DNA from: Antedon mediterranea
Lineage: Eukaryota > Animalia > Echinodermata
DNA length: 64,000 bases
Direction of reading: 5' to 3'
Assembly (NCBI RefSeq): GCF_964355755.1
Contig: NC_092672.1
Coordinates: 25,240,437-25,304,436 of the forward strand
This document shows, in pieces, positions 18,607 through 54,241 of this stretch (positions are counted from its first letter, which is position 1; each line of letters opens with the position of its first letter). The position numbers were made by a program, and so were the translations under genes. The notes below the pieces were generated by a model that did not search any database, was not told the origin of the DNA, and saw only the letters and a list, made by a program, of their open reading frames with translations.

Positions 18607-19179
18607 ATGTTGAAGCTAAGAGGATTGATTTTCGACGTATTTATTGTTTTATTCGTTGTAAGTGTTCCATGGAATTGGTTATTATTGTACAGAGAGAGAG
18701 TGGCGGTTAATCGGGCCGAGATGACACAGCTTGTCAACAAATGTGAAAAGCAACAGAGACGAATCACAGAGAATGCTGATACGATGAATGTGTTTGTGTC
18801 GTGGTTGCGAACAAATATCTTTATAGAAGAAAGAGACGAATGTACCGAATATCACAGAAACTATGTAGTACATCCGATCCTGTCCGTTTCGCCGGTTGAA
18901 GCGTTTGCCAAGACCGTTTCTAGCTTGATAGAAATTCCTGCTCGGGCACTTGGAAAGGCAATGTCTGACTTTAACTTGAATTTCATAGGCAGAATTCCAA
19001 TTTCAATCTGGATTCCTGCCCTATTAACATGGTCTTCTATGCTCATAGCTACAGTTACGTTCGTCTATTTACTCTGTCTAAAGTACAGTCGTCCAAACAC
19101 CGTATTCGTTACTGCACTGTCCACGAAGAAATGTTGGTCGTCGCGAAACGGTAAACATCGGTTAAAAGTAAACTCGTAA
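18607..19179 (+). CDS. CLCC1: Chloride channel CLIC-like 1 (CLCC1/MCLC) homolog, minimal viral form
   Basis: SVPWNWLLLY...KC...WLR...DECTEYH...VHPILSVSPVEAF...PARALGKAMSDF matches CLCC1 SFLWNWMYLY...WFR...DPCQKYY...VNPIWLVPPTKAL...EPLKHIGKG. Confidence 0.85.
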   Translation: MLKLRGLIFDVFIVLFVVSVPWNWLLLYRERVAVNRAEMTQLVNKCEKQQRRITENADTMNVFVSWLRTNIFIEERDECTEYHRNYVVHPILSVSPVEAFAKTVSSLIEIPARALGKAMSDFNLNFIGRIPISIWIPALLTWSSMLIATVTFVYLLCLKYSRPNTVFVTALSTKKCWSSRNGKHRLKVNS

Positions 19180-23870: not shown

Positions 23871-23926
23871 TGTATGTTCTTGCACTTTACACTTAGCTGT
23901 TTGCTGAGACATTATTAGTTAGTATA

Positions 23927-24006
23927 TACTGCTTCACTGAAGTGTGTGTAGGATACTGCTTCACTGAAGTGTGTGTAGGATACTGCTTCACTGAAGTGTG
24001 TGTAGG
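23927..24006. repeat. 27-bp tandem repeat x3
   Basis: TACTGCTTCACTGAAGTGTGTGTAGGA repeated in the divergent intergenic region. Confidence 0.9.
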
Positions 24007-24279
24007 CTATATATACTGCTAGCAAAGTGAATTATGTGTGTATACAATTGAATCGTTGGCATTGAACGTTTCTAAATAAAAGACTTCCTTGCGAATTGAA
24101 AAGACGATGACCTTCAAAAGTTTATGCATAATTAATAGGCATGAGTATTATCTCCTGGTAAGTTGTACACTGTCTAATCGATGTCCACCTTGGAAAATAT
24201 CAACGTATGTGATTGTGAATATATAAGAGGCAAGATTGTGTATTTTTAATGTTTAGTTAAAGTCGCGCGGTTGTTGAAA

Positions 24280-27200
24280 ATGAGTAAATCTGAGAGTACA
24301 GCCGATGATCTACTGCCATGTGAATTATGGCCGGGCAGTCGAATTACGGACGATATTGTGTTTGGTGAACCCATGCACATCATGTGCGTCGAGTTGAAAT
24401 CGTTTGAAATACCGACAAACTCGCTGCGCAATTGCTCCCCGCATACGTACATAATGATGATGGTGTTGTTGAGAAAAGCGTTACAGTTGCACTGCAACGA
24501 TGAACAGCACGCACTGGTGTGCTCTCTTATTGAACCTAGTCGCATCGTGGATGAAACGGTTCGGGGTAAGGTGTCGTGCGGTTACGTGTTCTGGTTGATC
24601 TTCCCACGACGTTTGCACAAAATGTTACAGTACGTTGTCAAGTCCATACTGTTGATAAACAACGGATACCTGCCAGCATGGGACACAACATTCTTGACAG
24701 ACGTCCGATGCGAAATGTTTTCCGACAACGATCTTGATGATGATGATGATGATGATGACGACGATGATGATGATAATGAACCGAAACGTAAAAAGACAAA
24801 ACGTAAACGAAACGATTCAGCAACGGCGACAATAAAATATGCATTTAAACATTTCGATTGCCGATTGGGTCGTGGAACGTCGCAAATGAAACGAACCAAG
24901 ATAAATAGCTATGTTCCACACGTGACAGTGCTCGGGGATTTTGAAAGAAGCATTGAAAAATATTTCTGTTTAGACATACCGAAAATCGAAGGCAATCGAT
25001 TGCCCCCGACTGTTAGAGAACAAGATACAGCAGAGGCGTGGCAAAAGCGCGCAGATCTGTTTACACCAAAGACTCTTTTTTCGTCATCTAGACGTGCAAC
25101 TCATCGACGTGAGCTGACACGTTTGATTGCAAATGAATCGAGTAATGCGCTAACTCTCGATCAGTTGATGACAATTGCCGACAAAGAATTGAATCTACCT
25201 CCGACTCTTAAACTGTCTTTGCAACAGATTGATCCGAGAGTTATAATGAACGAAGGCGATAGTCGTTGTGTAAGCTTCCAACATATGAAAGCGTGGATAT
25301 TGGAACCTCACATGTACGAGGCGAATTATTTTTTGAAAAGACACTTTCCTGCACTTGAAAGTGATACGAACATTGGTAATACAAAATTGTTTGTTCACGC
25401 TATGCGCGATGATGCAGCGCAATTGGACGAAGACAAAATTTCGGCAATCGGAAAACTGTATGTAACCAACCAGAATCAGAACGAAGTGACCATAGACTCG
25501 AGGTACGTATTTTATAATTATCATCATCATCATCATCATCATCACCACAACACAAATTGTAGTGTGCGTGTTTTACTTTTGATTTATAATTGTTTTCGTT
25601 TTGTTTTTTGTTTTTTTTTTTTCTTAATAGGCATTTATACGGTGAAAAATACACGGCAAAGAATCCGGGCATAGTGATGATGAGAAAGATTTTTCACAAC
25701 TTGCAATTGACTCCGGAAAGATACCGTGACAAGACTGTCGGCAAAATTTTCTTTGACATGTACACGCAAGTGCATATGGGAAGACACGTGCAAATGAGCG
25801 AAGTAATAACGCAATCGTATGCCGATATGTGGGATACCGAGATGAAGGGTTGGTGTATGAACGCGTCTAGACACAGTGACGGCAGTTTTGTTCCATTCGT
25901 ATACGAAGAGGAAACTGACGTGAAAATATCGATAGGTTATCGATATCTTTTGAACATGGTGGCTCTGATAGGTAATGTGGCCGGTGTGTCTAACGCTAAA
26001 GGTGAACTTTTGTATATTTTACTGTCGGCTATACGTATCGTATGCCCACACGATGCGATGGCCATGCACGCCATTCTGGTTGGACCTCCCGGTACGGGTA
26101 AAACGTCTGTGATGGTAGCCGCTAAATCTGTAATCGGTAACGCTTACTCAGACGACGTTACTTACCGAACACAGAAAGCCGTGCTCGTCGATAATGAGCG
26201 AAAGTACAAAAATTCAAAAAAAATACGCTTCATGAACGAATTTGTGCCACCGTCGTCTGGATCTAAAAGCGATAAGAATCCGTTGTCAATTGAAAGCAGT
26301 CAAGAAGCGGCAATAATGAAAGAGGAACTCGATTCCGGCTGTACGCGCACCGAACGAACCGAGAAGGTAACGGATCCGAACACGGGAACCACTCGACACG
26401 GTGTTCGAACCGTAATCAACGTTTGCGATAATGCCACCATAATGGCCATGAACGAAAAAAACTTGTGTAACTCGTTAAACGAACGAGTTGTCACTTTTGA
26501 CGTGGCACCCAGTGGTGTTGTCAACGTGCCCAAGAAAATGGAGGGATACGAGAAGGAATTGGATCGTTTAAAAATTCGAACGCAATTCGGCGCTCTGCGC
26601 CACAAAGTAATGGAACATGTACGGTTGGCAGAGTGCGGTCTGTATCCACGTCGATCGGAAGGAGATTCGTACAAAGACGATCGTATGCTACTGTTGACTT
26701 GCGATAGAATATCTGTCGAATTGGAAAGGCAAGGAGTCCGATTCGGATTCGCCACAGAAACTAGAACCATCAATAAACTCATCGACCTGGCACGTTTGTG
26801 CGCCTTTCACAATGCAGTGATTCAAGTGAACGGCTGTCCGTTACAAAGTCTGCACGCCAATACACCTCGATTACCGAACGAGAACACTTGTTGTCTCAAT
26901 TCAAGAATCATAGCCAAACATCAACGGTGGCTGATGCAACAGGACATGAAGCGACTACACGACATGGTAATGTCCGAGGCGCAGCCGGATCCTGCTGATA
27001 TTTTGTTTGCATTTTCGTTAATGTGTCCGATGCCACAGAACGAACTGATCATCGTGAGAACGATAGCGGATCAGTTGATTGATCCGTCTCATGATCCCGT
27101 TCATCGAGATGGTGAAACTTACTTTGAATTGACGTGCAGGAGCGAAGAGGCGCTTCTGTCCATTTTAGAGCGCAAAACGGGTGTTGCTCGCAAACAATGT

Positions 27201-28637
27201 AAGGAAATATTGTTGGCTATGCACAGTGGACGGAGTAAGTTGTTTCGAAAAATGGACGATAACGGACAAAAACAGCTTCTGTTCAAATGTAGCGAGGCAA
27301 CGGAAGCTCATCTTTCGTCACATGCAAACGAGTACCGTGAAATATCGGACGTGATGATGGCAGGAATGTGCAATGCAAAACAGTACAGGGGAAAACATTA
27401 CATATACGTTATGCTCAATGGAAAACTTACACAAGCCGCACGCTTCTTGTCTCATTTGCCCGTCTTCGCTCGACATATGTACTGGGGCCAGTCAAACTCT
27501 CAAGATCCCAAATCCAGCATCAATTATCTAGGATCGGTGCCGAAAAAGTTTACCAACGAAGAAAGATACTGGATAAAAATAAATTTAGATTTTCACGAGA
27601 CCCGACTGGCGTACGTTAGGAAACTCGCAATCCAATCGTGTGTGAGTGGAGACTGCGACGAAAACGGATCAATTGCGGTCGGTGTTGACGTGAAAGAGAT
27701 TGCCGACAGTTTAAGGGTGTTGAAATGCAGATCATATGACGGTAGCAGAGATAGACTACCGATGCCACCGCCGGTGATGAACAACGATCACACGTGCAGA
27801 TTGGTATTGGAAACGTCGAACGCTCGAGCCTTTATGGTACACGTTAGCGTCTTTTTGCCACAACATAGACGTTTGAAAAAAATACTCGAATTGTGCACAA
27901 AGGTTGTGCTCGAAGATAAAAACGCGTGCCGAGGTAATCGAATACGCGTTCTGGTAAATGACGAGTTCGAGGCGGATGAGCTGAGAAACGGTGTGAATTT
28001 GCTAACAAACGACTTGAGACACTTGATCAATTCTTCTTCGATCATCTCGGAAACACCACCACCGAACGTATTCTTTCACGTAAATCTGTTGACGTTGAAT
28101 TCATTGGAAGACGCGTGTAAGCATTACAAAGTGAAAGCCGGCGAATCAATGATCAAGAGTGTATTGGAAAAGTGCGTGTTTAAAAATATGACTGAACGTA
28201 AAACCATCATGTACGTGGATCGTAGTACAAGAGATGTGTTTCAGACGTTAGACATTCAGCAATTGGCCGAAAAGAACGGCGGTAGTCTACCGGTACACAA
28301 GTGTAAAAATCCGTATCTGACACAAACGCTTCGAAATCCAACAACCGAGGTAGTAGATCGTGATAGATTAAGATTCAAGTTAGAAGAACCGCAATTTCTT
28401 GAAGCCGAACCGTCGCACGTTCAACGACGAAAAGCATGGATTAGAATGTTGTCCGATGGTACGGAGATTAAACTGAGAGAACGATTTGGACACGACGTGG
28501 ACACTTATTTACGCCACATAAGACTCGTAGAAGATGCAATTATAGAAAAGGACAAACTGCACGCATTCAGACCACTGGTTTACAAGACTGGTGAAAAGAA
28601 ACTTTCACCGTGTACGTGCTCAAAACAAACGTTATGA
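24280..28637 (+). CDS. Large AAA+ (MCM-like) helicase, two exons (24280-25502, 25631-28637), ~1409 aa
   Basis: A GTACGT...TTCTTAATAG intron at 25503-25630 joins the 467- and 1015-aa ORFs in frame (DSR|HLYG). Walker A LVGPPGTGKT, Walker B-like FMNE, AIMKEELDSG, sensor-1 TIMAMN, Arg finger SLNERV. Confidence 0.78.
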
Positions 28638-29002
28638 ACTAATAATATGTAAATATGTATATATAAAAAAAAAAAAAATGATTTCATACCATACCTCCGT
28701 GCATTCATATTATGTTTATGGTCTTATATAAATTACATTGTATACGTGTGAGTTTTTTTATATATATATTTTGTGTGTGTGTGTGTTGCCAATAAAACGA
28801 ATGAAATTTAGCCGTCTCGTTCTCTGTTTTAATCATTACACATGCAAGAATACCATTGATAAACGCGCACTTTATAATGATTATGTACAGATAGTATGTT
28901 TACTGAAAGAAATAACATCGCGTAATTATTATACACTTCTCATCGAATAAAATAAAAATGTATACTACCGATTCTAGGAAAAATTTTCCGATAAAGCGCC
29001 GC

Positions 29003-29190
29003 GCTGTTATCATGATGGTCTACCTGAATGCTTAACAATGAAGCGCGCTGATTATCATGATGGTCTTCCTGAATGCTTAACAATGAAGCGCGCTGTTATC
29101 ATGATGGTCTACCTGAATGCTTAACAATGAAGCGCGCTGATTATCATGATGGTCTTCCTGAATGCTTAACAATGAAGCGCGCTGTTGTTA
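29003..29190. repeat. ~44-bp minisatellite x4
   Basis: TTATCATGATGGTCT(A/T)CCTGAATGCTTAACAATGAAGCGCGCTG repeated without spacers. Confidence 0.9.
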
Positions 29191-29264
29191 TCATTGACTT
29201 GAAGTTATATTTTCATTTAAAAAAACAAACGAAAAAAAAAAAAACATTCCTCTAAGAAAATGAT

Positions 29265-31929
29265 GAGACTCAAGAACTAACCATTCAGCTGGCTTACAAT
29301 CTATCGATACCATAACAGTATTAGTAATTTATCAAAAACTATATAGGGGCGCAATATCGGTAAATATAGAATCTAGGATTGGATTTACGACTAGGCGCGT
29401 AGAGGAAGCTTGTTCAAATTGTTAGTATACCAAAATGATTATATATCAAAACGAATTACTCTATCACACATATTCGGGATAACAATTAAAAATATTTCTT
29501 TAAAGCTTTGTGACCGGTTCCGGAGACCGGTGTATACACTGACCGACGGTGATACAGACACACGACTAGGCGCGTAGAGGCAGCTGGTTGAAATTGTTAG
29601 TATACCAAATGATTATATATCGAAACGAATGATAGAATCGATGGAGATGAAATTCATAAAATACGCTTAATATATTAAACTATAATAATAATAATAATAC
29701 ACATTAAACATATTTCTTTAAAAAATTAATTGACCCTGACTCTTTGGGACCGGTGTATACATTTACCGACGGTGTCGCTTATATCCATCATATTGCCGAG
29801 ACGGTTTTATTGAAACACTAAAGTAACTCACGATGGAATTACACCCGTTTGTGTATTTCATGATCATCATTCGAAAACCATACGCAAATTAAACAGGGTA
29901 GGAGGAAGAGGAGGCACGATATATTCAATACGAATTTAAAAGCGCGCACCACACATACACATCAGTGTAATCGACAATCATTCATCGGTTTCGTTGTTTG
30001 TTGACAAATCGCGTGTAGTTAACCTTAACTATGGTCAATAAAGAAGATGGTGAGTAAAACAAATATTAAATATATATATATATATATGTGTGTGTATCAA
30101 ATCAATTCTCGAACCCTAGCCTAATGCTACAGCGTTACATTACGAGACTCAACAACTAACCATTCAGCTGGCTTACCATCTATCGATACCATAACATTAT
30201 TAGTAATTTATCAAAAACTATATAGGGGCGCAATATCGGTAAATATAGAATCTAGGATTGGATTTATGACTAGGCGCGTAGAGGCAGCTGGTTGAAATTG
30301 TTAGTATACCAAAATGATTATATATCGAAACGAATCACTCTAACACACATATTCGGGATAACAATTAAAAATATTTCTTTAAAGCTTTGTGACCTGGTGT
30401 GTACACTGACCGACGGTGATACATGCACACGCCCTACCCGCATTTCTATTGTAATCATCGATAAAAGCAATGCAGACCGATTATAATATTGTTACAATGC
30501 AGTGTTTTAATTTGGAAATTAAATTCCGTTTCTACATAGTCGAATCTAAATTAATAAGGAGAGAAGGAGAGGGAGAGAAACCTAAATAGAATTTAAAACA
30601 TAGCATTTTGATTTTAAAATGTGATGATAGAATCGATGGAGATGAAATTTATAAAATACGCTTAATATATTAAACTATAATAATAATAATACACATTAAA
30701 CATATTTCTTAAAAAAATTAATTGACCCTGACTCTTTGGGACCGGTGTATACATTTACCGACAGTGACGCTTATTTCCATGATATTGCAGAGACGGTTTT
30801 ATTGAAACACTAAAGTAACTTACGATGGAATTACACCCGTTTGTGTGTTTCATGATCATCATTCAAAAACCATACGCAAATTAAACAGGGTAGGAGGAAG
30901 AGGAGGCACGATATATTCAATACGAATTTAAAAGCGCGCACCACACATACACATCAGTGTAATCGACAATCATTCATCGGTTTCGTTGTTTGTTGACAAA
31001 TCGCGTGTAGTTAACCTTAACTATGGTCAATAAAGAAGATGGTGAGTAAAACAAATATTAAAAAAATATATATATGTATCAAATAAATTCTCGAACCCTA
31101 GCCTAAGGCTACAGCGTTACATAACGAGACTCAAGAACTAACCATTCAGCTGGCTTACAATCTATCGATACCCTAACAGTATTAGTAATTTATCAAAAAC
31201 TATATAGGGGCGCAATATCGGTAAATATAGAATCTATAGGATTGGATTTACGACTAGGCGCGTAGAGGAAGCTTGTTCAAATTGTTAGTATACCAAAATG
31301 ATTATATATCGAAACGAATTACTCTATCACACATATTCGGGACAACAATTAAAAATATTTCTTTAAAGCTTTGTGACCGGTTCCGGTGACCGGTGTATAC
31401 ACTGACCGACGGTGATACAGACACACGACTAGGCGCGTAGAGGCAGCTGGTTGAAATTGTTAGTATACCAAATGATTATATATCGAAACGAATGATAGAA
31501 TCGATGGAGATGAAATTTATAAAATACGCTTAATATATTAAACTATAATAATAATAATAATACACATTAAACATATTTATTAAAAAAATTAATTGACCCT
31601 GACTCTTTGGGACCGGTGTATACATTTACCGACGGTGTCGCTTATTTCCATCATATTGCCGAGACGGTTTTATTGAAACACTAAAGTAACTCACGATGGA
31701 ATTACACCCGTTTGTGTATTTCATGATCATCATTCGAAAACCATACGCAAATTAAACAGGGTAGGAGGAAGAGGAGGCACGATATATTCAATACGAATTT
31801 AAAAGCGCGCACCACACATACACATCAGTGTAATCGACAATCATTCATCGGTTTCGTTGTTTGTTGACAAATCGCGTGTAGTTAACCTTAACTATGGTCA
31901 ATAAAGAAGATGGTGAGTAAAACAAATAT

Positions 31930-31976
<47 letters not shown>

Positions 31977-34934
31977 CAAATCAATTCTCGAACCCTAGCC
32001 TAATGCTACAGCGTTACATTACGAGACTCAAGAACTAACCATTCAGCTGGCTTACAATCTATCGATACCATAACATTATTAGTAATTTATCAAAAACTAT
32101 ATAGGGGCTTAATATCGGTAAATATAGAATCTAGGATTGGATTTACGACTGGGCGCGTAGAGGCAGCAGGTTCAAATTGTTAGTATACCAAAATGATTAT
32201 TAATCGAAACGAATCACTCTATCACACATATTCGGGATAACAATTAAAAATATTTCTTTAAAGCTTTGTGACCTGGTGCGTACACTGACAGACGGTGATA
32301 CATGCACACGCCCTACCCGCATTTCTATTGTAGTCATCGATAAAAGCAAAGCAGACCGATTATAATATTGTTACAATGCAGTGTTTTAATTTGGAATCTA
32401 AATTCCGTTTCTACATAGTCGAATCCAAATTAATAAGGAGAGAAGGAGAGGGAGAGAGAGAGAGAAACCTAGATAGAATTTAAAACATAGCATTTTGATT
32501 TTAAAATATGATGATAGAATCGATGGAGATGAAATTTATAAAATACGCTTATATTAAACTATAATAATAATAATACACATTAAACATATTTCTAAAAAAA
32601 AAGTAATTGATCCTGACTCTTTGGGACCAGTGTATACATTTACCGACAGTGACGCTTATTTCCATCATATTGCAGAGACGGTTTTATTGAAACACTAAAG
32701 TAACTCACGATGGAATTACACCCGTTTGTGTGTTTCATGATCATCATTCGAAAACCATACGCAAATTAAGCAGTGTAGGAGGAAGAGGAGGCACGATATA
32801 TTCAATACGAATTTAAAAGCGCGCACCACACATACACATCAGTGTAATCGACAATCATTCATCGGTTTCGTTGTTTGTTGACAAATCGCGTGTAGTTAAC
32901 CTTAACTATGGTCAATAAAGAAGATGGTGAGTAAAAAAATATTAAAAATATATATATATATGTATCAAATCAATTCTCGAACCCTAGCCTAATGCTACAG
33001 CGTTACATTACGAGACTCAACAACTATATAGGGGCGCAATATCGGTAAATATAGAATCTATAGGATTGGATTTACGACTAGGCGCGTAGAGGCAGCTGGT
33101 TGAAATTGTTAGTATACCAAAATGATTATATATATCGAAACGAATTACTCTAACACACATATTCGGAATAACAATTAAAAATATTTCTTTAAAGCTTTGT
33201 GACCTGGTGCGTACACTGACCGACGGTGATACATGCACACGCCCTACCCTTATTTCTATTGTCATCATCGATAAAAGCAATGCAGACCGATTATAATATT
33301 GTTACAATGCAGTGTTTTAATTTGGAATCTAAATTCCGTTTCTACATAGTCGAATCCAAATTAATAAGCAGAGAAGGAGAGGGGCAGAGAGAGAGAGAGA
33401 GAAACCTAGATAGAATTTAAAACATAGCATTTTGATTTTAAAATATGATTATAGAATCGATGGAGATGAAATTTATAAAATACGCTTATATTAAACTATA
33501 ATAATAATAATACACATTAAACATATTTCTAAAAAAAAAGTAATTGACCCTGACTCTTTGGGACCGGTGTATACATTAACCGACAGTGACGCTTATTTCC
33601 ATCATATTGCAGAGACGGTTTTATTGAAACACTAAAGTAACTAACGATGGAATTACACCCGTTTGTGTATTTCATGATCATCATTCAAAAACCATACGCA
33701 AATTAAGCCGGGTAGGAGGAAGAGGAGGCACGATATATTCAATACGAATTTTAAAAGCGCGCACCACACATACACATCAGTGTAATCGACAATCATTCAT
33801 CGGTTTAGTTGTTTGTTGACAAATCGCGTGTAGTTAACCTTAACTATGGTCAATAAAGAAGATGGTGAGTAAAACAAATATTAAATATATATATATATAT
33901 GTATCAAATCAATTCTCGAACCCTAGCCTAATGCTACAGCGTTACATTACGAGACTCAAGAACTAACCATTCAGCTGGCTTACAATCTATCGATACCCTA
34001 ACAGTATTAGTAATTTATCAAAAACTATAATAGGGGCGCAATATCGGTAAATCTAGGATTGGATTTATGACTAGGCGCGTAGAGGCAGCTGGTTGAAATT
34101 ATTAGTATACCAAAATGATTATATATCGAAACGAATTACTCTAACACACATATTCGGAATAACAATTAAACATATTTCTTTAAAGCTTTGTGACCTGGTG
34201 TGTACACTGACCGACGGTTATACAGACACACGCCCTACCCTTATTTCTATTGTAATCATCGATAAAAGCAATGCAGACCGATTATAATATTGTTACAATG
34301 CAGTGTTTTAATTTGGAAATTAAATTCCGTTTCTACATAGTCGAATCCAAATTAATAAGGAGAGAAGGAGAGGGAGAGAAGATTCCGTTTCTACATAGTC
34401 GAATCCAAATTAATAAGGAGAGAAGGAGAGAGAGAGAGAGAGAGAGAGAAACCTAGATAGAATTTAAAACATAGCATTTTGATTTTAAAATGTGATGGTA
34501 GAATCGATGGAGATGAAATTTATAAAATACGCTTAATATATTAAACTATAATAATAATAATAATACACATTAAACATATTTCTTTAAAAAATTAATTGAC
34601 CCTGACTCTTTGGGACCGGTGTATACATTTACCGACAGTGACGCTTATTTCCATCATATTGCCGAGACGGTTTTATTGTAACACTAAAGTAACTCACGAT
34701 GGAATTACACCCGTTTGTGTATTTCATGATCATCATTCGAAAACCATACGCAAATTAAACAGGGTAGGAGGAAGAGGAGGCACGATATATTCAATACGAA
34801 TTTAAAAGCGCGCACCACACATACACATCAGTGTAATCGACAATCATTCATCGGTTTCGTTGTTTGTTGACAAATCGCGTGTAGTTAACCTTAACTATGG
34901 TCAATAAAGAAGATGGTGAGTAAAACAAATATTA

Positions 34935-34969
<35 letters not shown>

Positions 34970-35910
34970 CAAATCAATTCTCGCACCCTAGCCTAATGCT
35001 ACAGCGTTACATTACGAGACTCAAGAACTAACCATTCAGCTGGCTTACAATCTATCGATACCATAACATTATTAGTAATTTATCAAAAACTATATAGGGG
35101 GCGCAATATCGGTAAATATAGAATCTAGGATTGGATTTACGACTAGGCGCGTAGAGGCAGCTTGTTCAAATTGTTAGTATACCAAAATGATTATATATCA
35201 AAACGAATTACTCTAACACACATATTCGGGATAACAATTAAAAATATTTCTTTAAAGCTTTGTGACCTGGTGTGTACACTGACCGGCGGTGATACATACA
35301 CACGCCCTACCCTTATTTCTATTGTCATCATCGATAAAAGAAAAGCAGACCGATTATAATATTGTTACAATGCAGTGTTTTAATTTGGAAATTAAATTCC
35401 GTTTCTACATAGTCGAATCTAAATTAATAAGGAGAGAAGGAGAGGGAGAGGGAGAGAGAGAGAGAGAGAGAGAGAAACCCAAATAGAATTTAAAACATAG
35501 CATTTTGATTTTAAAATATGATGATAGAATCAATGGAGATTAAATTTATAAAATACGCTTATATTAAACTATAATAATAATAATACACATTAAACATATT
35601 TCTTAAAAAAAAGTAATTGACCCTGACTCTTTGGGACCGGTGTATACATTTACCGACAGTGACGCTTATTTCCATCATATTGCCGAGACGGTTTTATTGT
35701 AACACTAAAGTAACTAACGATGGAATTACACCCGTTTGTGTGTTTCATGATCATCATTCGAAAACCATACGCAAATTAAGCCGGGTAGGAGGAAGAGAAG
35801 GCACGATATATTCAATACGAATTTTAAAGCGCGCACCACACATACACATCAGTATAATCGACAATCATTCATCGGTTTCGTTGTTTGTTGACAACGCGTG
35901 TAGTTAACCT
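29265..35910. repeat. Tandem array of seven ~0.9-1.1-kb units in two structural variants
   Basis: The unit start GAGACTCAA(G/C)AACTA recurs at ~29265, 30143, 31126, 32023, 33012, 33951 and 35015. Units 1 and 3 share a deletion and CCGGTTCCGG. Confidence 0.93.
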
Positions 35911-36002
35911 TCATCGCAAAGTATAAAAATCGACCAGTATGGAGTTTTAGTTTCAAACTTTAATTGGAAGTTGTAGTGAATTCTTGTAGCAATAAAGTAA
36001 TC

Positions 36003-36677
36003 ATGAACGTCAGCCAGTCAGAAGATGAGTTTTATTTCGGCTTTCATTCACACACCGTATGCAGACCGGAAGATAACATGAAATGCGTTCGTGTACATCT
36101 GCTACATAGACTGATAGCAGACACTATTTTAAAACAATGTAGGAAAACATATTTATTCGATTCTCTATATAAGTTACGCGATGTGATCACTGAAGTAGAC
36201 CACATTAGATGTGCAGCGTACGGTGATTTGGAGTTGTCATTCCAAATAGGAGTTCACACAAACATCGACGACACAGCGAGAAGTCCTCTGTGTTACTGGC
36301 CAAAGTTTCTACTCGAAATGCGTGAATGGATACACATTGCGACTGGTCATTTTTACAATATGGTAACTTTGACAAGAGCGGAGGATTCAGCGGAATGCTA
36401 TCTTAATGATGTACAAAGGAGCAAAATAAGTCCTGTATGCATTATGTCTCTGGGACCTACTAGAATCTGTAGATTCGAACACCGCACCAACAAAAACATT
36501 AAACCTGTGAACATAAAAATGGAGCACGGTTCGATGCTGGTAATAAATTCTGAAACAATCAACGAATGGTCAAGAACTGTACCAAAGATAGATGGAATAG
36601 GAAGCACCAGCATATTGACATTTATGAACATTGAAAGGTATAGCAATATCAATATTACAACAAACAATGTATTGTAG
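36003..36677 (+). CDS. AlkB/ALKBH2-like 2OG-Fe(II) fold protein, catalytic residues lost
   Basis: AYGD...WPKFLLEMREWI..ATGHFYN...SPVCIMSLGPTR.CRF...MEHGSMLVIN...EWSRTVPK...ILTF aligns to ALKBH2/3. HxD reads YLN, the distal H reads R, and RxNLTFR reads SILTFM. TATAAAA at 35922. Confidence 0.78.
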   Translation: MNVSQSEDEFYFGFHSHTVCRPEDNMKCVRVHLLHRLIADTILKQCRKTYLFDSLYKLRDVITEVDHIRCAAYGDLELSFQIGVHTNIDDTARSPLCYWPKFLLEMREWIHIATGHFYNMVTLTRAEDSAECYLNDVQRSKISPVCIMSLGPTRICRFEHRTNKNIKPVNIKMEHGSMLVINSETINEWSRTVPKIDGIGSTSILTFMNIERYSNINITTNNVL

Positions 36678-38029: not shown

Positions 38030-40510
38030 TCACCGACGTCTTATGATTGAACCGGCTACAAGAACACTTCTGTCCTTGTCGGAGAGAAAGTGATTTTCTG
38101 TGTATTCATTGGTAAGATCGGCCCTCAAGTAAAACACCATCTTTTTCTGTATAACGGGCGTCCGATGGGGATCGGCAATGATACTTTCGATGAAATCTTT
38201 TGGGAAAAAAGGCCTCATATCGTCCGGGCTGACGATACAGAACCGTATTTTCTCCTCGCCATCACCACCACTGTCATCGTTTATCAATACTATATTGTCA
38301 TCAAACGGTCGAGGTAGATGACAAGGAAACGATCTCGGTGACGCAAGTTCTCCGTCATCGTTATCGTCGTCCTTGTGATCGAGTGCAAGTTGACAAAGTA
38401 CGTGAACGCTATCTTCAGGGGAATGAATAGGGCCACGAACAAAGTCTGATTTCTTATGACATAAAAGCAAAACGTTTGCACATTGAATGAATCGCGCAAA
38501 ACATGGCGATGTATGATTCCATTTAACCACTCCAGCATTGTCGACAGTGACAACGTTCTGGTAATAGGATGTACATTCTCCGTGTTTGGGTTGTGGAGGT
38601 TGCCGATTACCTTCATTCGCGTCTATAACGTCATACGAGGCCAAGATAAGAGGATATGCCGAGAGACGAGTTACGTAGCGTTCGTTCTGTCGGCAAACCA
38701 CGTTGGCTTGAACGCCTTCGAATATCGATGCGTGCATGAAAGGTATACTGTGTCTAATGTGCTGAGTGACGCGGATAGACTCTTCGTACGCGTCATACGC
38801 TGGTTGAAGAGAAGCCATTTCGAGGCGTTGTTCTTGTAGGGGCGTGAGACCGATCACGGATGATCTGATGCGTACCGTCACCGGATCAAAGTCAAACCAC
38901 ATCAGTCTACCCAGGTGTGATGTGCAGTTGGCGAGAGCAAACATAAGCTGGGCGTCGTTTTTTACTTCGGGAACGGCGAACGAGAATGTTATGGCCGGAT
39001 AGGCAATTGCAAACAGTCGAAGCGCCTCGTTTTGATCGCATCTTTGTTGTAAGGAAGCGTAACCGTCGTGTTCCGGAACAGGAAATTTCGGAATCCAAGT
39101 TTGCAGGTACTTGACAAAACGTTTTCTTCGTTTGCCGTCAACGCGTCGCTCAAAATTCGTAAGAAACCTGTCGATTCCTTCGATGCGTTTCTGTGTGATT
39201 CGTCTGCGTTTTTTCGGATACAAAGGAGCGATGGATTTGATGAGTTCGAAACTGCTCAAGAAGGAAGAAGCTTGTCGAAGCACGTCCAGGCACAGACATT
39301 GAATCGTCGTTTCAAAATCCTCAAACAGTAACAATCTTTTTCCGATTTCTTTGTAGAGAGTAGCGCGTAATTTTGGAAGATTGAACAAAACTGTTTCAAG
39401 ATCGATGTAGACACCGTTCATAACTGCGTAGTTCTCTAGACCCATCTTCTCAGCTTCTAACGCGAACGTCGTGCGTTCTCTTTTCTTGGCGACTTCATTC
39501 AACGCTCTGCGTAGGATTTCTTCTTCTTCAACAGCAGCAGCAGCAGCAGCAGCACGCGCTTCGTTCAAATAACACTGCATCTTTACTGCTTCAAAAGTGA
39601 ACGGGGTACGTCTACCACGCGCAAACGTGGCCGTTTCCCACAACAGAACGCTGGCCAGAATCAATTCGTCTTGTACTGGCGGACGATGATACTCTCTCGC
39701 CTTTGCAACGACATTCGATGGAGATTTTGAATGCCAGTTGTGTTGATTGATTCCATGCGATCGCATATGAAACCAAAACTGTTTCGATTGCGTCAGTATG
39801 TGATCTGATGCCGATGTTCTCTCGCATATGTTCGAGAGCAGCCGTCGTAGCGCGTGCACATTTTTGGTAGACGCGGTGAACAGCTCAAATGAGAGTGCCA
39901 ATAGAGCTACGTTCGGATCGCTTGTCATCGACGTGAACAGCTTCAACATTCGAGGCGTGTGCATAAAGTCTTCTTCTTCTGATGATGATGGTGGTGGTGG
40001 TGGTGGTGGTGATGGTGGTGGTGGTGTAATATGCGTGATGAGTCGACGTTTGTTTTTAGTTTTCACATTGGGACGGTGGTGGTGAAGATGATGATTGATG
40101 ATTCTCGAAATTGTCGGATATGATCTGTTTACCCTACAGCCGTTAATCACAAGAACATCGGTTCTCTTCTCGTACGTCATATCGGTATCGGTGAACTTAC
40201 CGACATGCGTTGGCCATTCGGATATCTGCGCCATCGACAGATTCGAAGCTAAATTTAGCGTCGGTCTCATTGCGACTCCTCGCTCACGCAACGGATGCGG
40301 ATTATAGTCTCCGAACACAACACCGTTCCAGCTTGGCTTTGTTATCATTTCGATTTCCAATGTGTCCGGTGTAACGTCGAGTGTAGGCAACGGTGGACTC
40401 CATTCATCACTAGGGGAGAAACGTTCCAGTATTATCCATTTACGTTCAACGATCAGTGCCGCGTACAATTTCTTTGAATTTGTGTCTTGCCATCTGTAAA
40501 TCGCCGACAT
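38030..40510 (-). CDS. Hypothetical 826-aa protein with basic NLS-like stretches
   Basis: Long intact ORF with poly-P and poly-A tracts and PKKRRR; no recognised family. Confidence 0.8.
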   Translation of the reverse strand: MSAIYRWQDTNSKKLYAALIVERKWIILERFSPSDEWSPPLPTLDVTPDTLEIEMITKPSWNGVVFGDYNPHPLRERGVAMRPTLNLASNLSMAQISEWPTHVGKFTDTDMTYEKRTDVLVINGCRVNRSYPTISRIINHHLHHHRPNVKTKNKRRLITHITPPPPSPPPPPPPSSSEEEDFMHTPRMLKLFTSMTSDPNVALLALSFELFTASTKNVHALRRLLSNICERTSASDHILTQSKQFWFHMRSHGINQHNWHSKSPSNVVAKAREYHRPPVQDELILASVLLWETATFARGRRTPFTFEAVKMQCYLNEARAAAAAAAVEEEEILRRALNEVAKKRERTTFALEAEKMGLENYAVMNGVYIDLETVLFNLPKLRATLYKEIGKRLLLFEDFETTIQCLCLDVLRQASSFLSSFELIKSIAPLYPKKRRRITQKRIEGIDRFLTNFERRVDGKRRKRFVKYLQTWIPKFPVPEHDGYASLQQRCDQNEALRLFAIAYPAITFSFAVPEVKNDAQLMFALANCTSHLGRLMWFDFDPVTVRIRSSVIGLTPLQEQRLEMASLQPAYDAYEESIRVTQHIRHSIPFMHASIFEGVQANVVCRQNERYVTRLSAYPLILASYDVIDANEGNRQPPQPKHGECTSYYQNVVTVDNAGVVKWNHTSPCFARFIQCANVLLLCHKKSDFVRGPIHSPEDSVHVLCQLALDHKDDDNDDGELASPRSFPCHLPRPFDDNIVLINDDSGGDGEEKIRFCIVSPDDMRPFFPKDFIESIIADPHRTPVIQKKMVFYLRADLTNEYTENHFLSDKDRSVLVAGSIIRRR

Positions 40511-40522
40511 TGTGCTGCTGCT

Positions 40523-42163
40523 ATGGCTGAATTTCTACCCCTGTACAAGACGCAAATAACAACGAGAAAGTATGAAAGTTTACCGGCTGTAAACGGCAAG
40601 TACGGCGCTATTCGAATTCAAGAAAGTGGGAAACATGGCAAAGTGAAGACAGCTAAAGAAAACGTGCACGTTGTGATAAAGACATTGTATGATTTCACGG
40701 CCAGCCACACGTCTACGCTCGAGCATGAAGACGTGAACTTGTCGGGAAACAAGGAAGTTTTGGTTCTTGCACACTTAAAACAAACGGACGCGGCTCGAAT
40801 GTGTACGCCTCGTCTGCTCGAAGTTTCTTATCGGCGTAACATCGCAATATCAATCACAATGAGAAACGAAGGATGTAATCTGTACAGGCTACGCTATTGT
40901 TACAAGCTTCTGCCTTGCGTGAAAACGCTTTCGTTACATGTTTGCAAAGCGTTGACGTTTCTCGAAAACGCAGGTGTGGTTCACAACGACATAACAATCG
41001 AGAACGTGGCGTATAGTCGATTAGATAATCGATTTCGTATAATAGACTTTGGTTCTGCCGAGTTTACAAAGCACGGTGCAAGCACGTTTGGCGTTTCTGT
41101 GAAAGAGAGACATGGCCATCGGTGTTTGGGTATCGTTCGAACCGGTTCCATGGCGTCAAAGTACTTGCCACCGGGAAGTCGACTACGCTTTTCCGACACC
41201 GAACCAAACTATTCGTGCGTCAGGAGTGAGGAGAAACTGACAAGGATACCTTTCAGGGACATAAGTCATGTGATGTCAGACAGACGAGTGAAGATGTTGC
41301 GTCGAAATTCGGACGTTTACAGCGCCTCGATGAGTGTGGCTTTAATGTTTTATGATGACAACAATCGGAATAAGTTTGAGACGCAAAGCGACTATTGTGA
41401 TTTAAAAAAGGACAAATTTGCGTACAACAATTTGATTAAGGTGTGTAGACATTCGGTAGAACTACGTGGTCCGATGAACGAACGTGATCTCCAGTTTTGG
41501 TACACGCACGTGAATCCGGATAGATCACTGACCGACGCATTTTCACTGTCGCATTGTTCCAGCAGCAAGAAATACAATTCATACATCGATAGATTCAGTC
41601 CGTTCTTGGGAGTCGAGTTTACGGACGCTTTAAAAGAATGTTTGAACCCTGTACCGGAACGTCGATGTGTATCGAAACTAGAAAAGGCGGCTTCGAAACA
41701 ACACGACTCAACTGTATTGTTTGGCGGTAAACAGTTTTCGTTGAAACGCGTTGAAGATAGATTGGTGTATCTAGTACACGAACATGACATTTCGATTGGA
41801 GACATCAAATTTGGCAACGAAAGCCCGAATCGAAACGTTGTGGTGGTGGAACATATGCACATCATGTCAAACGATCGGAAACTGATCATGTCGTTTCTCA
41901 TGTCGGCTCTCAGACTGAGTCAATATATTGCAACTACAGTAGAATTCTGCGTGTTCAGCGACGAGGACATTAAACATTTGTCGAATTCATTCGGCACCAA
42001 CGCTAAATTAAAATTACACGATGGAATACGCCGAATGTATGTGAAAGTCAACGACGACGTACCGCTCATAGTAAGCGTCGAAAAATCCAGATCCGAATAT
42101 AATACGGTGGTGGTGGCCGATGATGAAGAAGAGGTTTCATCTGCGAAACGACCATGTAGATGA
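40523..42163 (+). CDS. Viral Ser/Thr protein kinase with a C-terminal GNAT-like domain
   Basis: NGKYGAI, VVIK, NKEV, VVHNDITIENV, IIDFGSAE, SDVYS, LNPVPERR. Confidence 0.85.
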   Translation: MAEFLPLYKTQITTRKYESLPAVNGKYGAIRIQESGKHGKVKTAKENVHVVIKTLYDFTASHTSTLEHEDVNLSGNKEVLVLAHLKQTDAARMCTPRLLEVSYRRNIAISITMRNEGCNLYRLRYCYKLLPCVKTLSLHVCKALTFLENAGVVHNDITIENVAYSRLDNRFRIIDFGSAEFTKHGASTFGVSVKERHGHRCLGIVRTGSMASKYLPPGSRLRFSDTEPNYSCVRSEEKLTRIPFRDISHVMSDRRVKMLRRNSDVYSASMSVALMFYDDNNRNKFETQSDYCDLKKDKFAYNNLIKVCRHSVELRGPMNERDLQFWYTHVNPDRSLTDAFSLSHCSSSKKYNSYIDRFSPFLGVEFTDALKECLNPVPERRCVSKLEKAASKQHDSTVLFGGKQFSLKRVEDRLVYLVHEHDISIGDIKFGNESPNRNVVVVEHMHIMSNDRKLIMSFLMSALRLSQYIATTVEFCVFSDEDIKHLSNSFGTNAKLKLHDGIRRMYVKVNDDVPLIVSVEKSRSEYNTVVVADDEEEVSSAKRPCR

Positions 42164-45899: not shown

Positions 45900-47132
45900 A
45901 TGAATAAAATAGTGCATACAGGCGCGATGGAATGTTATGAAAGACGATTGGCCACGTATGAGTTTTGGATTGCGGGACACGTGATATCGCCTACATCGTT
46001 AGCAATGTCGGGCTTCTTTTATACGGGGCAAGACGACCGAGTAGAATGTTACCGTTGTCACGGTAAACTTTCGAGATGGAACGCCGGAGCAGATGCCGAT
46101 ACAGAGCACAAGAAACACTTCCCGTTGTGCAAACTGATGTCATGTGGTAACAGCAGTCCTTTAATCGGCAGTAAAACACATTTGGTCGACTCAAACTCGC
46201 ATATGGTCAGATTGTCGACTTTTAAAAACTGGCCATTTGGACACATCGTATCGGCGTGCACTTTAGCAAAGTCTGGATTTTATTACAGGTCATGCTGTGA
46301 CGTAGTCGAATGCTTCTCTTGCAACGGTTTACTTGAGCGATGGAAAAGAGGAGTGAATGTCGACGAAGAGCATAGAAAACATTTTCCGTTGTGTAAGTTC
46401 ATGTTATCCACCGCGGCCACCGTGGCGACCCCCACCACCACCACCACCAATAGGCAACGGGCAATGCATCCACAATACGCTCTTTTGAATGTTCGAAAAA
46501 TGACGTTTACTACAGTATGGGCTACCGATCATACGCCGAACGGAATAGCCGAGGCCGGATTCTTTGCAATCAATCGGGACCAGGCAATGTGTTTCCATTG
46601 CGGCGGTGGACTGAAAGACTGGCAATTAGACGATAATCCTTGGATCGAGCATGCAAAGTGGTTTCCGTTCTGCAATTGGTTGAGAATCGAAAAAGGTTTT
46701 CCTTTCATCGAGACGGCTCTTATTTCGTCAAAAAGTCCGTTTGATATTGCAATGCGCTCTGAAATCGTTGTGAAAGTTTTAGAAATGGGTTTTGACATGC
46801 AACATGTATCGACTACTGTAAACGATCACGTGAAGAGAACCGGTGGAAACTTTACGTCTAGCCTTGAGCTTCTGAACGCTGTCACGATTCCAGTGAACGA
46901 TAAACCAACAGTGGTAGAAGAGGAAAAAGTGGAGGAAGAAGAAGATTTGCAATCTGTTGTGCGCGATTTACGCGAAAAAAAAACATGTAAGATATGCATG
47001 GACGCTGACGTTTGTGTTCTTTTCATTCCATGTTCGCATTTGGTCGCCTGCTGGTCGTGTTCAAACAGTTTGCTGTTGTGTCCGATTTGTCGAGGTAAAA
47101 TAGATAAACGTCAGAAAGCCATTCTCTCTTAA
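45900..47132 (+). CDS. iap: Inhibitor of apoptosis (3 BIR, UBA-like, RING)
   Basis: Three BIRs (RLATY..GFFY..C..C..W..H..C), VLEMGF UBA-like, C-terminal RING CKICMDADVCVLFIPCSHLVAC..CPICR. Confidence 0.97.
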   Translation: MNKIVHTGAMECYERRLATYEFWIAGHVISPTSLAMSGFFYTGQDDRVECYRCHGKLSRWNAGADADTEHKKHFPLCKLMSCGNSSPLIGSKTHLVDSNSHMVRLSTFKNWPFGHIVSACTLAKSGFYYRSCCDVVECFSCNGLLERWKRGVNVDEEHRKHFPLCKFMLSTAATVATPTTTTTNRQRAMHPQYALLNVRKMTFTTVWATDHTPNGIAEAGFFAINRDQAMCFHCGGGLKDWQLDDNPWIEHAKWFPFCNWLRIEKGFPFIETALISSKSPFDIAMRSEIVVKVLEMGFDMQHVSTTVNDHVKRTGGNFTSSLELLNAVTIPVNDKPTVVEEEKVEEEEDLQSVVRDLREKKTCKICMDADVCVLFIPCSHLVACWSCSNSLLLCPICRGKIDKRQKAILS

Positions 47133-47158: not shown

Positions 47159-48823
47159 ATGCACGGTCAAAAGAAGATTTTATCGTTTGGCAAATTGGAT
47201 AATACAATCGATCCGTTGGTGACTGTGAACAGCCGAGGTTCTTTTGGCGTTGTCCATTCGATAGAGTCTGGTTTAGTTGAAAAATTACATTGTGGCAATC
47301 AGAATAGCAGCGATGCACGAGTACGTTTAACATTCAACAAGGAAACTTTCATTTTAGCTTACGCAAACTACTTTGACAGATTGAAACGGTACACGCCGCA
47401 GATATGTCAGGCAGTCGTCGATTCAGGAGTGACTCAATGTTTGCGCATGACAAACGAAGGTTTTGACTTGTTTACAATACGGATGACAATGCAAATGTTG
47501 CCGTGCGTGCTTACACTTTATCGACATGTTGGCGAGGGGCTTGCTTTTCTGGACAAGATAGGAGTCGCACATAACGACATAACCATCAGGAATGTGACGT
47601 ACAACAGACGGCAGGGCCGATTCAAGTTTATTGATTTTGGTTCGGCCGAAGTACATCGTCGAAAAATGATCGAATTTGAATCGAGCAAAAAGGTCGGCTT
47701 ATTTGGAGGTGTTGGATGCGTTCACGGAGAATCGATAGCCTCCGCGTACATACCATCGGACATGCCGATCTACACAATGGACGTTGACACTGGATTCGGA
47801 GGAGTGCGCAGCGTAGAAAGACTAGTGTCCATAGGGTATCGAGATATCAGTCACGTGATGACAGACAGAGTGGTGAAACTGCTGAATAGTGAATCGGACG
47901 TGTTTTCTGCCGCAATGACCGTGGTGACGGCCACAATGTACAACGAATGCCAACAATTTGATGAGGTGCAATACACAGACATGAAAAGACTTGGAGACAC
48001 TGGGCAAAAGTCGAAGATATTACACACTCTTGTCGGCCTCTGCAGACAATTTGTGAAGATAAGAGGTGGTATGACAAAATTCGAAACGGCTTACTGGTAC
48101 ACGTACGTAAACTCTGACATGAACATATGTAAGGCTCTGGAATGCCAGCCGTCCGATGAACTGCCTATACTGGATCGATATCGAAGTGTTCTCGGTGAAC
48201 GTTTTATCGATCGGCTTGTTGACAATTTAAATCCAATACCGGAGAACAGAAAGTCGTTTCTAGTGTTGAAGAACGACGTTCAATCACAGCGCACCAACAT
48301 CGAATCTATGGACATGTTATCGGTGAAGATGGTTGCGCAGAATGTCGTTCATTTGTTTTACAGAGACTTTCAAACGCTAGTTGGAGATGTGGTGTTTCAA
48401 GAAAGTGGCGCAAACATAACAGTTGATCATATGAACCTGTTGATTGACAACGCAGACGGCACGTTAGCGGTCGTGTTTGTTCGATCAGCATTGAATCTGT
48501 ATCGAAAACCTTCGTCATCGTCGTCGTCGTCATCGTCGTCGTCGGTAGAGTTTAGAGTTTACAACGACAGAGAACGTCGATTCTTGGTGTCATTGTTTCC
48601 AACGCATCGACAAACGACAGACGGTCATTTAGTTGTCGAGATTGAAAAGGATTCGTCAATCATTCTTCCTCTTGGAGTGAAGCAGCAAACGGTCACCGAT
48701 AGGGTTTTCAAAGAGATGTTAGGAAACAAAATAAAATCGATACACACGCCTATACGAGAAAACTCATGGTGCACGTCCAAGTCGAATCTACGTGTAAAAC
48801 AGCTGCCATCAATTTCTTCCTAG
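47159..48823 (+). CDS. Second viral Ser/Thr kinase (paralog of 40523-42163) with a GNAT-like C-terminus
   Basis: SRGSFGVV, VEK, NKET, AHNDITIRNV, FIDFGSAE, RDISHVMTDR, SDVFS, LNPIPENR. Confidence 0.85.
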   Translation: MHGQKKILSFGKLDNTIDPLVTVNSRGSFGVVHSIESGLVEKLHCGNQNSSDARVRLTFNKETFILAYANYFDRLKRYTPQICQAVVDSGVTQCLRMTNEGFDLFTIRMTMQMLPCVLTLYRHVGEGLAFLDKIGVAHNDITIRNVTYNRRQGRFKFIDFGSAEVHRRKMIEFESSKKVGLFGGVGCVHGESIASAYIPSDMPIYTMDVDTGFGGVRSVERLVSIGYRDISHVMTDRVVKLLNSESDVFSAAMTVVTATMYNECQQFDEVQYTDMKRLGDTGQKSKILHTLVGLCRQFVKIRGGMTKFETAYWYTYVNSDMNICKALECQPSDELPILDRYRSVLGERFIDRLVDNLNPIPENRKSFLVLKNDVQSQRTNIESMDMLSVKMVAQNVVHLFYRDFQTLVGDVVFQESGANITVDHMNLLIDNADGTLAVVFVRSALNLYRKPSSSSSSSSSSSVEFRVYNDRERRFLVSLFPTHRQTTDGHLVVEIEKDSSIILPLGVKQQTVTDRVFKEMLGNKIKSIHTPIRENSWCTSKSNLRVKQLPSISS

Positions 48824-53431: not shown

Positions 53432-54241
53432 TTAGTGCACGGGACGTAGAAAGAGTTTCTTACAAAGACCGTGCTGGGTTGCGGCCACCTGATTGCTTTT
53501 AATTGTTCCGTTGGCAAGAGTCAACATGGACATTAAATCGTGTTTTGTTGAATACGAATGAAACACTTTACAGAGTGACTGAATAAACTTATACTGACGG
53601 TCCAGGGTCGAATACGTAATGGATACGTCACAGCCTCTCGGCAACGATTGAGGCTGCACGACAATTGTTTCGTCTACTTGACAAGCTTGTATGAAAAAGA
53701 GTTTAGGTTTTCCGTTCAACGTTTCACATTTTTCGAAACAGTCGACGATTTCAGTGACATTGACAGTACCGTGAGTGAGAATGCACACGGCAATGCAATC
53801 TAGTCTAGAGTGATCGTATTCACTTAGACGTGTGAGCAACGTCTTCGTTTCTATGGACGTCAGATTGTGATTAACAGACAGTTGGAAGCCGAGATAATTG
53901 AAGACATTTTCAAGCGCTGCACAATCATCATCATCATCATCATCATCATCATAATTGTTGATGATTACTGTGAAACCGCGCGGATTTGAAGTCATCTTGT
54001 ACTCGTTCAATCCGCCATCATGGATAGAATCGATAAATGCATTGTACGCAAAACTACCTCGTGTTTCGATGTCGATCAACAATCGTTCACGAGCGTTCGT
54101 GTTAGATAAAATTGCATCCATCTTCTTGGTCGAATACACGCCTTTCTGTACCAATTTCTCCATTACTTCTCTAATGCTGTTTATGTTACGAATAAAATAG
54201 AGACGATTTTGACGCAATTTTTTCTTGTCTGATCTGTTCAT
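53432..54241 (-). CDS. CARD-containing caspase homolog with deleted substrate-binding loops
   Basis: CARD-like LRQNR...LLIDIETRGSFAYNAFIDS; YKMTSNPRG..IINN, CILTHG, GKPKLFFIQACQ, FIQSLC, LCKKLFL. Confidence 0.9.
   Translation of the reverse strand: MNRSDKKKLRQNRLYFIRNINSIREVMEKLVQKGVYSTKKMDAILSNTNARERLLIDIETRGSFAYNAFIDSIHDGGLNEYKMTSNPRGFTVIINNYDDDDDDDDDCAALENVFNYLGFQLSVNHNLTSIETKTLLTRLSEYDHSRLDCIAVCILTHGTVNVTEIVDCFEKCETLNGKPKLFFIQACQVDETIVVQPQSLPRGCDVSITYSTLDRQYKFIQSLCKVFHSYSTKHDLMSMLTLANGTIKSNQVAATQHGLCKKLFLRPVH

Follow-up and report, generated by a model that had tools for sequence, protein, structure and literature searches.

What is encoded by two adjacent open reading frames (ORFs) that lie in different frames, and what would the product do in a herpes-like genome? 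The question is raised by positions 24280 to 28637 of a 64,000-nucleotide (nt) stretch of the Antedon mediterranea assembly GCF_964355755.1 (contig NC_092672.1, positions 25,240,437 to 25,304,436, forward strand), called here the window. The window is herpes-like in content, with a Herpes_ORF28 protease domain, a family B polymerase, a CLCC1 homologue, a BIR-RING protein and a caspase. The host of such a virus would be aquatic and probably an invertebrate. We propose that the two ORFs specify one 1409-aa protein of the Allo56 family, with a predicted MCM-like motor of AAA+ clade 7 and a winged helix, which would act as an ATP-driven ring threading DNA during genome replication, beside a separate UL5-type helicase-primase. 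We put the probability of this reading at about 0.6.

ORF1 (24280–25674) and ORF2 (25677–28637) are both on the plus strand. Excision of 25503–25630 joins an exon 1 of 1223 nt to an exon 2 of 3007 nt and leaves 1409 codons plus a stop. The excised segment has the GT-AG ends and the pyrimidine tract of a spliceosomal intron, and its removal restores the frame. Its donor is GAG/GTACGT (the slash marks the boundary at 25503), its 3' end is TAATAG with a T-rich acceptor reaching 25630, a (CAT)n run occupies 25520–25544, and its guanine plus cytosine (GC) content is 25% (T 52%) against 43–45% in the exons. Forty-one GT/AG pairs could fuse the frames, five of them through the T-rich acceptor; the chosen pair has the best donor, the T-rich acceptor and a position at the edge of the low-GC segment. 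The 128-nt intron with its (CAT)n run, as described in the first-pass annotation of this DNA, proved exact in coordinates, length and frame. The ORF1 frame stays open across the segment to 25674, so that the two-ORF appearance is not caused by a stop in that frame, and splicing is argued from homology and strain variation instead.

Twenty relatives were found among 1.84 billion representative sequences, and 16 of them are single proteins of 1350–1735 aa. Both exons are matched by one chain, P0001 (1375 aa), with 40% identity in exon 1 (residues 9–365) and 51% in exon 2, where the match begins at residue 4, before the ATG at 25677. Strain variation was followed in contigs assembled from eight of eleven runs (numbered with an X); none of these contigs has the exons joined, which speaks neither for nor against splicing. 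A single contig spans the segment in three of the eight, and segment lengths in other isolates were obtained by subtraction from the piece tables. The segment measures 128 nt in the window; in X5 and X6, which come from one study, it has 94 nt, and in X8 96 nt. Modulo three these lengths are 2, 1 and 0, so that the variation takes no account of the reading frame, as would be the case for an intron. The changes that separate X6 from the window are mostly synonymous: exon 2 has 15 differences as far as 26600, of which 13 are of this kind, and the covered part of exon 1 has 13, of which 7 are (about 0.22 expected in each case), with the qualification that 7 of these 13 sit on a deeper contig, possibly another copy. 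Judged from these strain differences, both exons are under purifying selection. The two ORFs are thus likely exons of one 1409-aa protein, the splice being deduced from homology and strain variation; the first-pass annotation had also read them as one spliced gene, which the single-chain relatives, the P0001 match and the varying segment length now back.

Several observations on the gene and its relatives stand apart from this argument. In X8 a 171-nt in-frame skip (26975–27147) was considered as an intron and rejected, as it has no GT-AG ends and is flanked by 7-nt direct repeats; this skip, and a minor X2 contig that runs from 25275 into intron sequence, are deletion variants or artefacts. 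A 190-bp part of exon 1 (25122–25312) is carried in X5 and X6 by contigs of several-fold greater depth than the rest of the gene, with unrelated flanks; it may be a second copy at another place, for instance a host repeat. Among the relatives, P0023/P0024, P0039, P0043 and P0044 are interrupted or truncated at other points, perhaps by further introns or frame breaks, and P0015 sits on a 1.34-Mb contig, which suggests a copy integrated into a host chromosome. P0018 folds well although it has lost the Walker A motif, the arginine finger and the region of the winged helix; it is a possible inactive paralogue. Word-index protein searches retrieved only three relatives, scans of viral and metagenome contigs retrieved none, and a phage search gave three weak matches only (E 1–7).

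Motif conservation was assessed in 27 aligned rows, some of them near-duplicates. The series GPPGTGKT, FMNE, MKEELDSG with a hairpin, TIMAMN and SLNER, which had been picked out from the window alone, is present in full and conserved across the family (Table 1). The protein has the Walker A motif, Walker B glutamate, sensor 1 and arginine finger of an AAA+ ATPase, with an alpha/beta/alpha core taken from the model of a relative. The residue before the Walker B glutamate varies (N in 11 rows, E in 9, S in 3, P in 3 and G in 1) and is Asp in none, the window protein having N-E where an MCM has D-E. The pre-sensor-1 hairpin, modelled in P0018 as strands 614–622 and 628–636, carries a basic arginine (26355) in 26 of the 27 rows, and a sensor-2-like arginine at 26763 (exon-2 residue 378) is present in all 27. 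The middle and C-terminal regions are also conserved among relatives.

The window's own exon-2 model, built from four rows, has a predicted local distance difference test score (pLDDT) of 37.5, and only residues 465–566, a winged helix, are confident. About 49 of the 50 structural matches listed for it fall on exon-2 residues 449–581, where helix-turn-helix and winged-helix domains lead; the best reaches Z 8.1, for a fold that is common. This winged helix, placed behind the ATPase as in MCM, likely binds DNA. The motor was therefore modelled on P0018, a 1056-aa relative short enough to include the N-terminal part, motor, lid and C-terminal domain; its model (28 rows) has pLDDT 78.9 and a predicted template modelling score (pTM) of 0.81. 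Since the ATPase site of P0018 is degenerate and its winged helix absent, transfer to the window protein runs through the alignment, in which model residues 436–834 correspond to exon-2 residues 54–464.

When the P0018 model was searched against 48,161 representative chains, matches spanned model residues 436–843 only, and MCMs made up 10 of the first 11 rows (Z 14.0–16.9 over 251–287 residues). The root-mean-square deviation (rmsd) of the top MCM rows was 3.5–4.1, with one exception at 7.2. A second structural look gave MCMs in all 50 listed rows, and Foldseek gave its MCM rows a probability of 1.00 (rmsd 7–14). Lower scores were obtained with chelatase (12.3), MoxR (11.7), ComM (11.1), Cch (10.2) and BrxL (9.9), and superfamily 3 (SF3) helicases lay lower still, with simian virus 40 (SV40) T antigen at Z 9.0 (134 residues) and the helicases of Staphylococcus aureus pathogenicity islands (SaPI) at 8.7–8.8. 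Helices 687–738 and 748–772 of the model align with those of MCM, RavA, BchI and MoxR over 250–290 residues, as in AAA+ clade 7. The motor is predicted to belong to this clade with MCM as nearest member; because it has neither the helix-2 hairpin nor a D-E Walker B, we class it as MCM-like and not as MCM. Placing the motor in the MCM clade and outside SF3, as the first-pass annotation had done, agrees with the P0018 model (Z 14–17 for MCM against about 9 for SF3, with RavA at 15.1).

At the sequence level, searches of Pfam, NCBIfam, PHROGs and PDB gave P-loop-level matches only, and one relative matched MCM weakly (E 0.083). Profile comparison of the ATPase scored MCM 82–87%, D5-like SF3 proteins 72–79%, MoxR 55% (21 of 30 sequences in the profile set, against 25 of 30 for D5-like) and DUF927 3% (11 of 12). 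The nearest atlas neighbours of the ATPase region were unnamed phage clusters (0.94–0.95), then PF27228 and BrxL (0.89); for exon 1 the leads were transposase-like and weak, under the recognition mark.

A fused primase or origin-binding domain had also been suggested. In the N-terminal domain the DxD, His and Asp motifs of archaeo-eukaryotic primases were not found on the candidate strands of the window protein (CVELK and GYVFW), and no OB-fold (oligonucleotide/oligosaccharide-binding) or primase rows occurred among the listed structural matches, which one domain filled. Profiles of the N- and C-terminal regions scored 0.08–3.6% against archaeal PriS (30 of 30) and MCM N-domains (30 of 30), but the same test missed a separate primase-like ORF (0.4%) and so has no power. 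A fused active primase is unlikely, with no DxD or His to support it; of that suggestion, a likely DNA-binding domain survives in the shape of the winged helix. The Asp-rich tract and the Lys/Arg cluster that follows it (Table 1) form a likely nuclear localisation signal.

The link to herpesvirus core genes came from predicted viral structures. Compared with the P0018 model, four of these stand apart: ranid herpesvirus 2 ORF111 (E 6e-17, 1443 columns, template modelling score (TM) 0.55/0.45), two unnamed entries (E 2e-15 and 7e-11) and Allo56 of lake sturgeon herpesvirus (E 1.3e-8); three viral rows span 1227–1443 columns. We take ORF111 to be the Allo56 orthologue of its virus. The next match has E 6e-6, and the remainder are mostly SF3, DUF927 and primase-helicase proteins with TM below 0.2 by query. 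Allo56 also ranked sixth (E 0.011) in a viral search with the window's poor model, the rest of which was noise. At the sequence level no match to Allo56 was found, there being no named Allo56 sequence in the data searched. Allo56, according to PMC12567609, is one of twelve alloherpesvirus core genes, among the five whose function was still termed unknown in 2025, and in two alloherpesviruses its gene and that of the polymerase stand back-to-back (further sources: PMC9740441, PMC12031113, PMC9503944, PMC5601938). The window protein likely belongs to the Allo56 family, as the model comparisons suggest.

The mechanism we propose starts from one gene, established by homology, with the splice as deduced above. 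In AAA+ proteins a trans-acting arginine finger and sensor 2 imply an oligomer. By conservation, the intact ATPase site with both residues would therefore assemble as an oligomer, most likely a hexameric ring, with an MCM-type fold and lid as predicted on the relative. That the substrate is DNA is probable from three features: a winged helix, a basic pore hairpin that is conserved, and the position of allo56 beside the polymerase. Within the ring, the pre-sensor-1 hairpin with its basic residue would form the lining of the pore and pull on DNA, and the winged helix would bind duplex DNA or an origin. Such a ring could open origins, drive forks or move recombination junctions.

A number of results weigh against this proposal. 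The good model is that of P0018, without Walker A and arginine finger and with a pairwise link to the window protein of E 9e-5 besides that through the alignment, while the ATPase part of the window's own exon-2 model has pLDDT below 50. The profiles barely separate MCM from D5-like proteins, and both scores are far under the MCM–MoxR control (98.75%). The sensor-1 Asn is 11 residues from the arginine finger, against 25 in MCM, and the Walker A–B spacing of 46 (44–54 in the family) is that of D5-like proteins (median 44; 9 of 25 measured) and not of MCM (median 60, values of 59–61; 42 of 49 measured; MoxR 58, 13 of 21 measured). This is the short linker of SF3, and the helix-2 insert hairpin of MCM is likewise absent from the P0018 model. 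In the structural search RavA, a MoxR ATPase and protein remodeller, came fifth (Z 15.1 over 286 residues), level with several MCMs. Foldseek E-values rank PrimPol of African swine fever virus (ASFV), an SF3 protein, first in PDB, with TM 0.15 and rmsd above 30. The Allo56 match has 10–11% identity and the row so named a TM of only 0.21, and many of the weaker viral structure matches are SF3 proteins.

The RavA score, those of chelatase and MoxR and the missing hairpin would all suit a clade-7 remodelling protein of the RavA/MoxR or chelatase type, serving capsid or replisome assembly, for example, without translocating DNA. The preponderance of MCMs in the first structural rows, the lower profile score of MoxR (55% against 82%) and a winged helix that follows the lid, as in MCM and Cch (in part PMC4889955), make this unlikely. 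We regard as quite unlikely a role as sole replicative helicase in place of the UL5-type enzyme. Archaea and eukaryotes do use MCM as their replicative helicase (PMC4889955) and no UL5-like gene was recognised among the 34 ORFs of the window, but the window is only part of a genome. Moreover, alloherpesviruses carry Allo56 together with a Pif1/UL5-like helicase and its primase partner (PMC13030845), and UL5 is reported for all three herpesvirus families (PMC4889955). The first-pass annotation had pictured a different replicative helicase instead of the usual one; since alloherpesviruses with Allo56 also keep the UL5-like helicase and primase, a second ring-shaped motor is likelier than a replacement, and that part of its account finds no support here.

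A highly derived D5-like primase-helicase of SF3, with a dead N-terminal primase domain, would fit the motif spacing, the C-terminal winged helix that is also typical of D5 (PMC4889955), the Foldseek rank of ASFV PrimPol, and the N-terminal strands, the first of which retains an acidic residue in distant relatives and the third of which shows G-H in five rows. It is nevertheless very unlikely, as SF3 proteins match over 134–222 residues at Z 8.7–9.0 against 250–290 at Z 14–17 for MCM, and as the lid with its invariant sensor-2-like arginine, a feature outside SF3, superposes on MCM. Finally, the segment could be unspliced, the window then encoding two proteins or a gene broken in this isolate. 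It is true that no stop interrupts ORF1 within the segment and that ORF2 could start at an ATG of its own, three bases past the ORF1 stop; with exon-2 homology that begins upstream of this ATG, relatives that are single chains, a segment of different length in different isolates and purifying selection in both exons, we consider this most improbable. The MCM-like motor of the Allo56 family, working beside a UL5-type helicase-primase, is the reading we retain, and herpes-like viruses likely own a second DNA motor besides the known helicase.

Table 1. Features of the gene and of its predicted product (window coordinates; row counts refer to the 27 aligned rows).
Feature	Position	Strand	Remarks
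TATA-like box	24220..24225	+	60 nt upstream of ATG; consensus match only
Exon 1	24280..25502	+	407 codons + 2 nt; N-terminal alpha/beta domain, acidic/basic tract, helical region
N-terminal strand-helix-strand-strand-helix domain	24355..24660	+	P0018 model residues 19-121 mapped by alignment
Asp-rich tract then Lys/Arg cluster	24735..24810	+	sequence
Inferred GT-AG intron	25503..25630	+	128 nt, 25% GC, (CAT)n, T-rich acceptor
Exon 2	25631..28637	+	AAA+ module, lid, winged helix, middle and C-terminal domains, stop
Walker A GPPGTGKT	26082..26105	+	G and K in 25/27 rows
Walker B FMNE, catalytic Glu	26229..26240	+	Glu in 27/27 rows
MKEELDSG helix and pre-sensor-1 beta-hairpin, predicted pore loop	26316..26423	+	K 27/27, D 26/27
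Sensor 1 Asn	26451..26453	+	27/27 rows
Arginine finger (SLNER)	26484..26486	+	26/27 rows
Pre-sensor-II insert helices and MCM-type lid	26574..27023	+	aligned to MCM lids
Winged-helix domain	27024..27329	+	confident part of window exon-2 model
Middle region and C-terminal domain	27330..28634	+	conserved in relatives
AATAAA, candidate polyadenylation signal	28791..28796	+	154 nt downstream of stop; consensus match only

Elsewhere in the window, the minus-strand ORF at 56354–57697 combines a Herpes_ORF28 domain, matched below the cut-off at E 7.5e-7, with a coiled region behind it; it is likely a capsid maturation protease with scaffold and is the main herpesvirus marker of the window. The family B polymerase (51185–53428, minus strand, 747 aa) has polymerase motifs intact by eye and a degenerate-looking N-terminal part; it is short for a herpesvirus replicase and is perhaps spliced or a second polymerase. 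An 826-aa ORF (38030–40510, minus strand) without a family match has WFDFD at residue 538 and later Cys/His residues, and is a candidate UL52-type primase. Further ORFs encode a CLCC1/MCLC homologue (18607–19179), a BIR-RING apoptosis inhibitor (45900–47132), a CARD-caspase (53432–54241) and two related kinases (40523–42163 and 47159–48823), with a weak 2-oxoglutarate-Fe(II) oxygenase match (36003–36677) and a weak RING match (58922–61951). CLCC1 homologues occur in allo- and malacoherpesviruses (PMC12639132). Tandem arrays with 27-bp and 45-bp units flank the gene (23926–24006 and 29000–29186), and the 7.3 kb downstream (28638–36002) contain no ATG ORF of 100 aa; together they form a candidate origin or regulatory region. 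A second intron-like segment of 72 nt, with a GTAAGT donor and a T-rich acceptor, was seen at 6185–6114 on the minus strand.

A global survey reports superfamily 6 (SF6) helicases in phages and archaeal viruses and not in eukaryotic viruses (PMC4889955). Our literature search, which was not exhaustive, met with no protein of this kind described from a eukaryotic virus and found no MCM-like or AAA+ function assigned to Allo56 or to ORF47 of ostreid herpesvirus 1 (OsHV-1); extracts of the structure-based annotation published in 2026 for a salmonid herpesvirus mention neither Allo56 nor MCM (PMC13030845), and those of PMC12583693 and PMC11092209 add nothing further on the assignment. What is new, on the strength of the predicted structures, is that the best whole-length viral matches of this protein family are alloherpesvirus proteins, including the Allo56 core gene. 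No UL8, UL42 or ICP8 homologues were found in the salmonid herpesvirus (PMC13030845, extracts); an MCM-like Allo56 may explain replication without recognised forms of these proteins. It would also bear on the ancestral herpesvirus replisome and point to a virus-specific drug target in aquaculture pathogens. We tentatively extend the proposal, at a little under even odds, to a single family of ancient origin, whose members would be MCM-like ring helicases of SF6 and the first of that kind in eukaryotic viruses. It would unite Allo56, Teratorn ORF56 and the relatives in invertebrate herpes-like viruses, which are the window gene and probably OsHV-1 ORF47. Fish, frog and mollusc herpesviruses would then replicate with a ring helicase, which opens origins or leads the fork, plus a UL5-type helicase-primase, and the ring would have been lost in orthoherpesviruses.

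Among known systems, the SF6 MCMs (archaeal MCM, MCM2-7 and MCM8/9) are closest: core, pre-sensor-II insert and lid superpose over 250–290 residues, and the basic pre-sensor-1 hairpin, sensor 1, arginine finger, sensor 2 and C-terminal winged helix are shared. The window protein differs in having no helix-2 hairpin, N-E in place of D-E and 10–13% identity, and in its ends, with about 460 N-terminal residues, mostly helical with a small alpha/beta domain in which no OB fold or zinc finger was recognised, and about 430 additional C-terminal residues. Cch of the staphylococcal cassette chromosome SCCmec, ComM, BrxL and DUF3987 are likewise clade-7-like AAA+ motors outside cellular replisomes (Z 9.9–11.1), and Cch and DUF3987 end in a winged helix; they score below MCM and come from bacterial elements and phages, not from an animal virus. 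The SF3 helicases (poxvirus D5, ASFV C962R, SV40 T antigen and SaPI Rep) share the short Walker A–B spacing and the pre-sensor-1 hairpin, and their D5-like members the winged helix behind the motor, but they have no MCM-type lid and reach Z of about 9.

OsHV-1 ORF47 (Malacoherpesviridae), a protein of 1412 aa, is a candidate mollusc orthologue and a lead only, there being no named ORF47 among the sequence or viral structure matches. Its function is given as unknown, and its conservation extends to the viruses of abalone, amphioxus and annelids (PMC2994540, PMC5994699, PMC5552708), with a weak P-loop helicase II match (74%) in a supplement table of PMC11565193. Allo56 (the family of ORF56 of ictalurid herpesvirus 1, IcHV-1) differs from the window gene in setting, the latter lying about 22.5 kb from the polymerase gene instead of adjacent to it and having an intron, but the two are of similar size (Allo56 has 1219–1320 aa), and the P0018 model of the family matches ORF111 and lake sturgeon herpesvirus Allo56 in predicted structure over the whole length.

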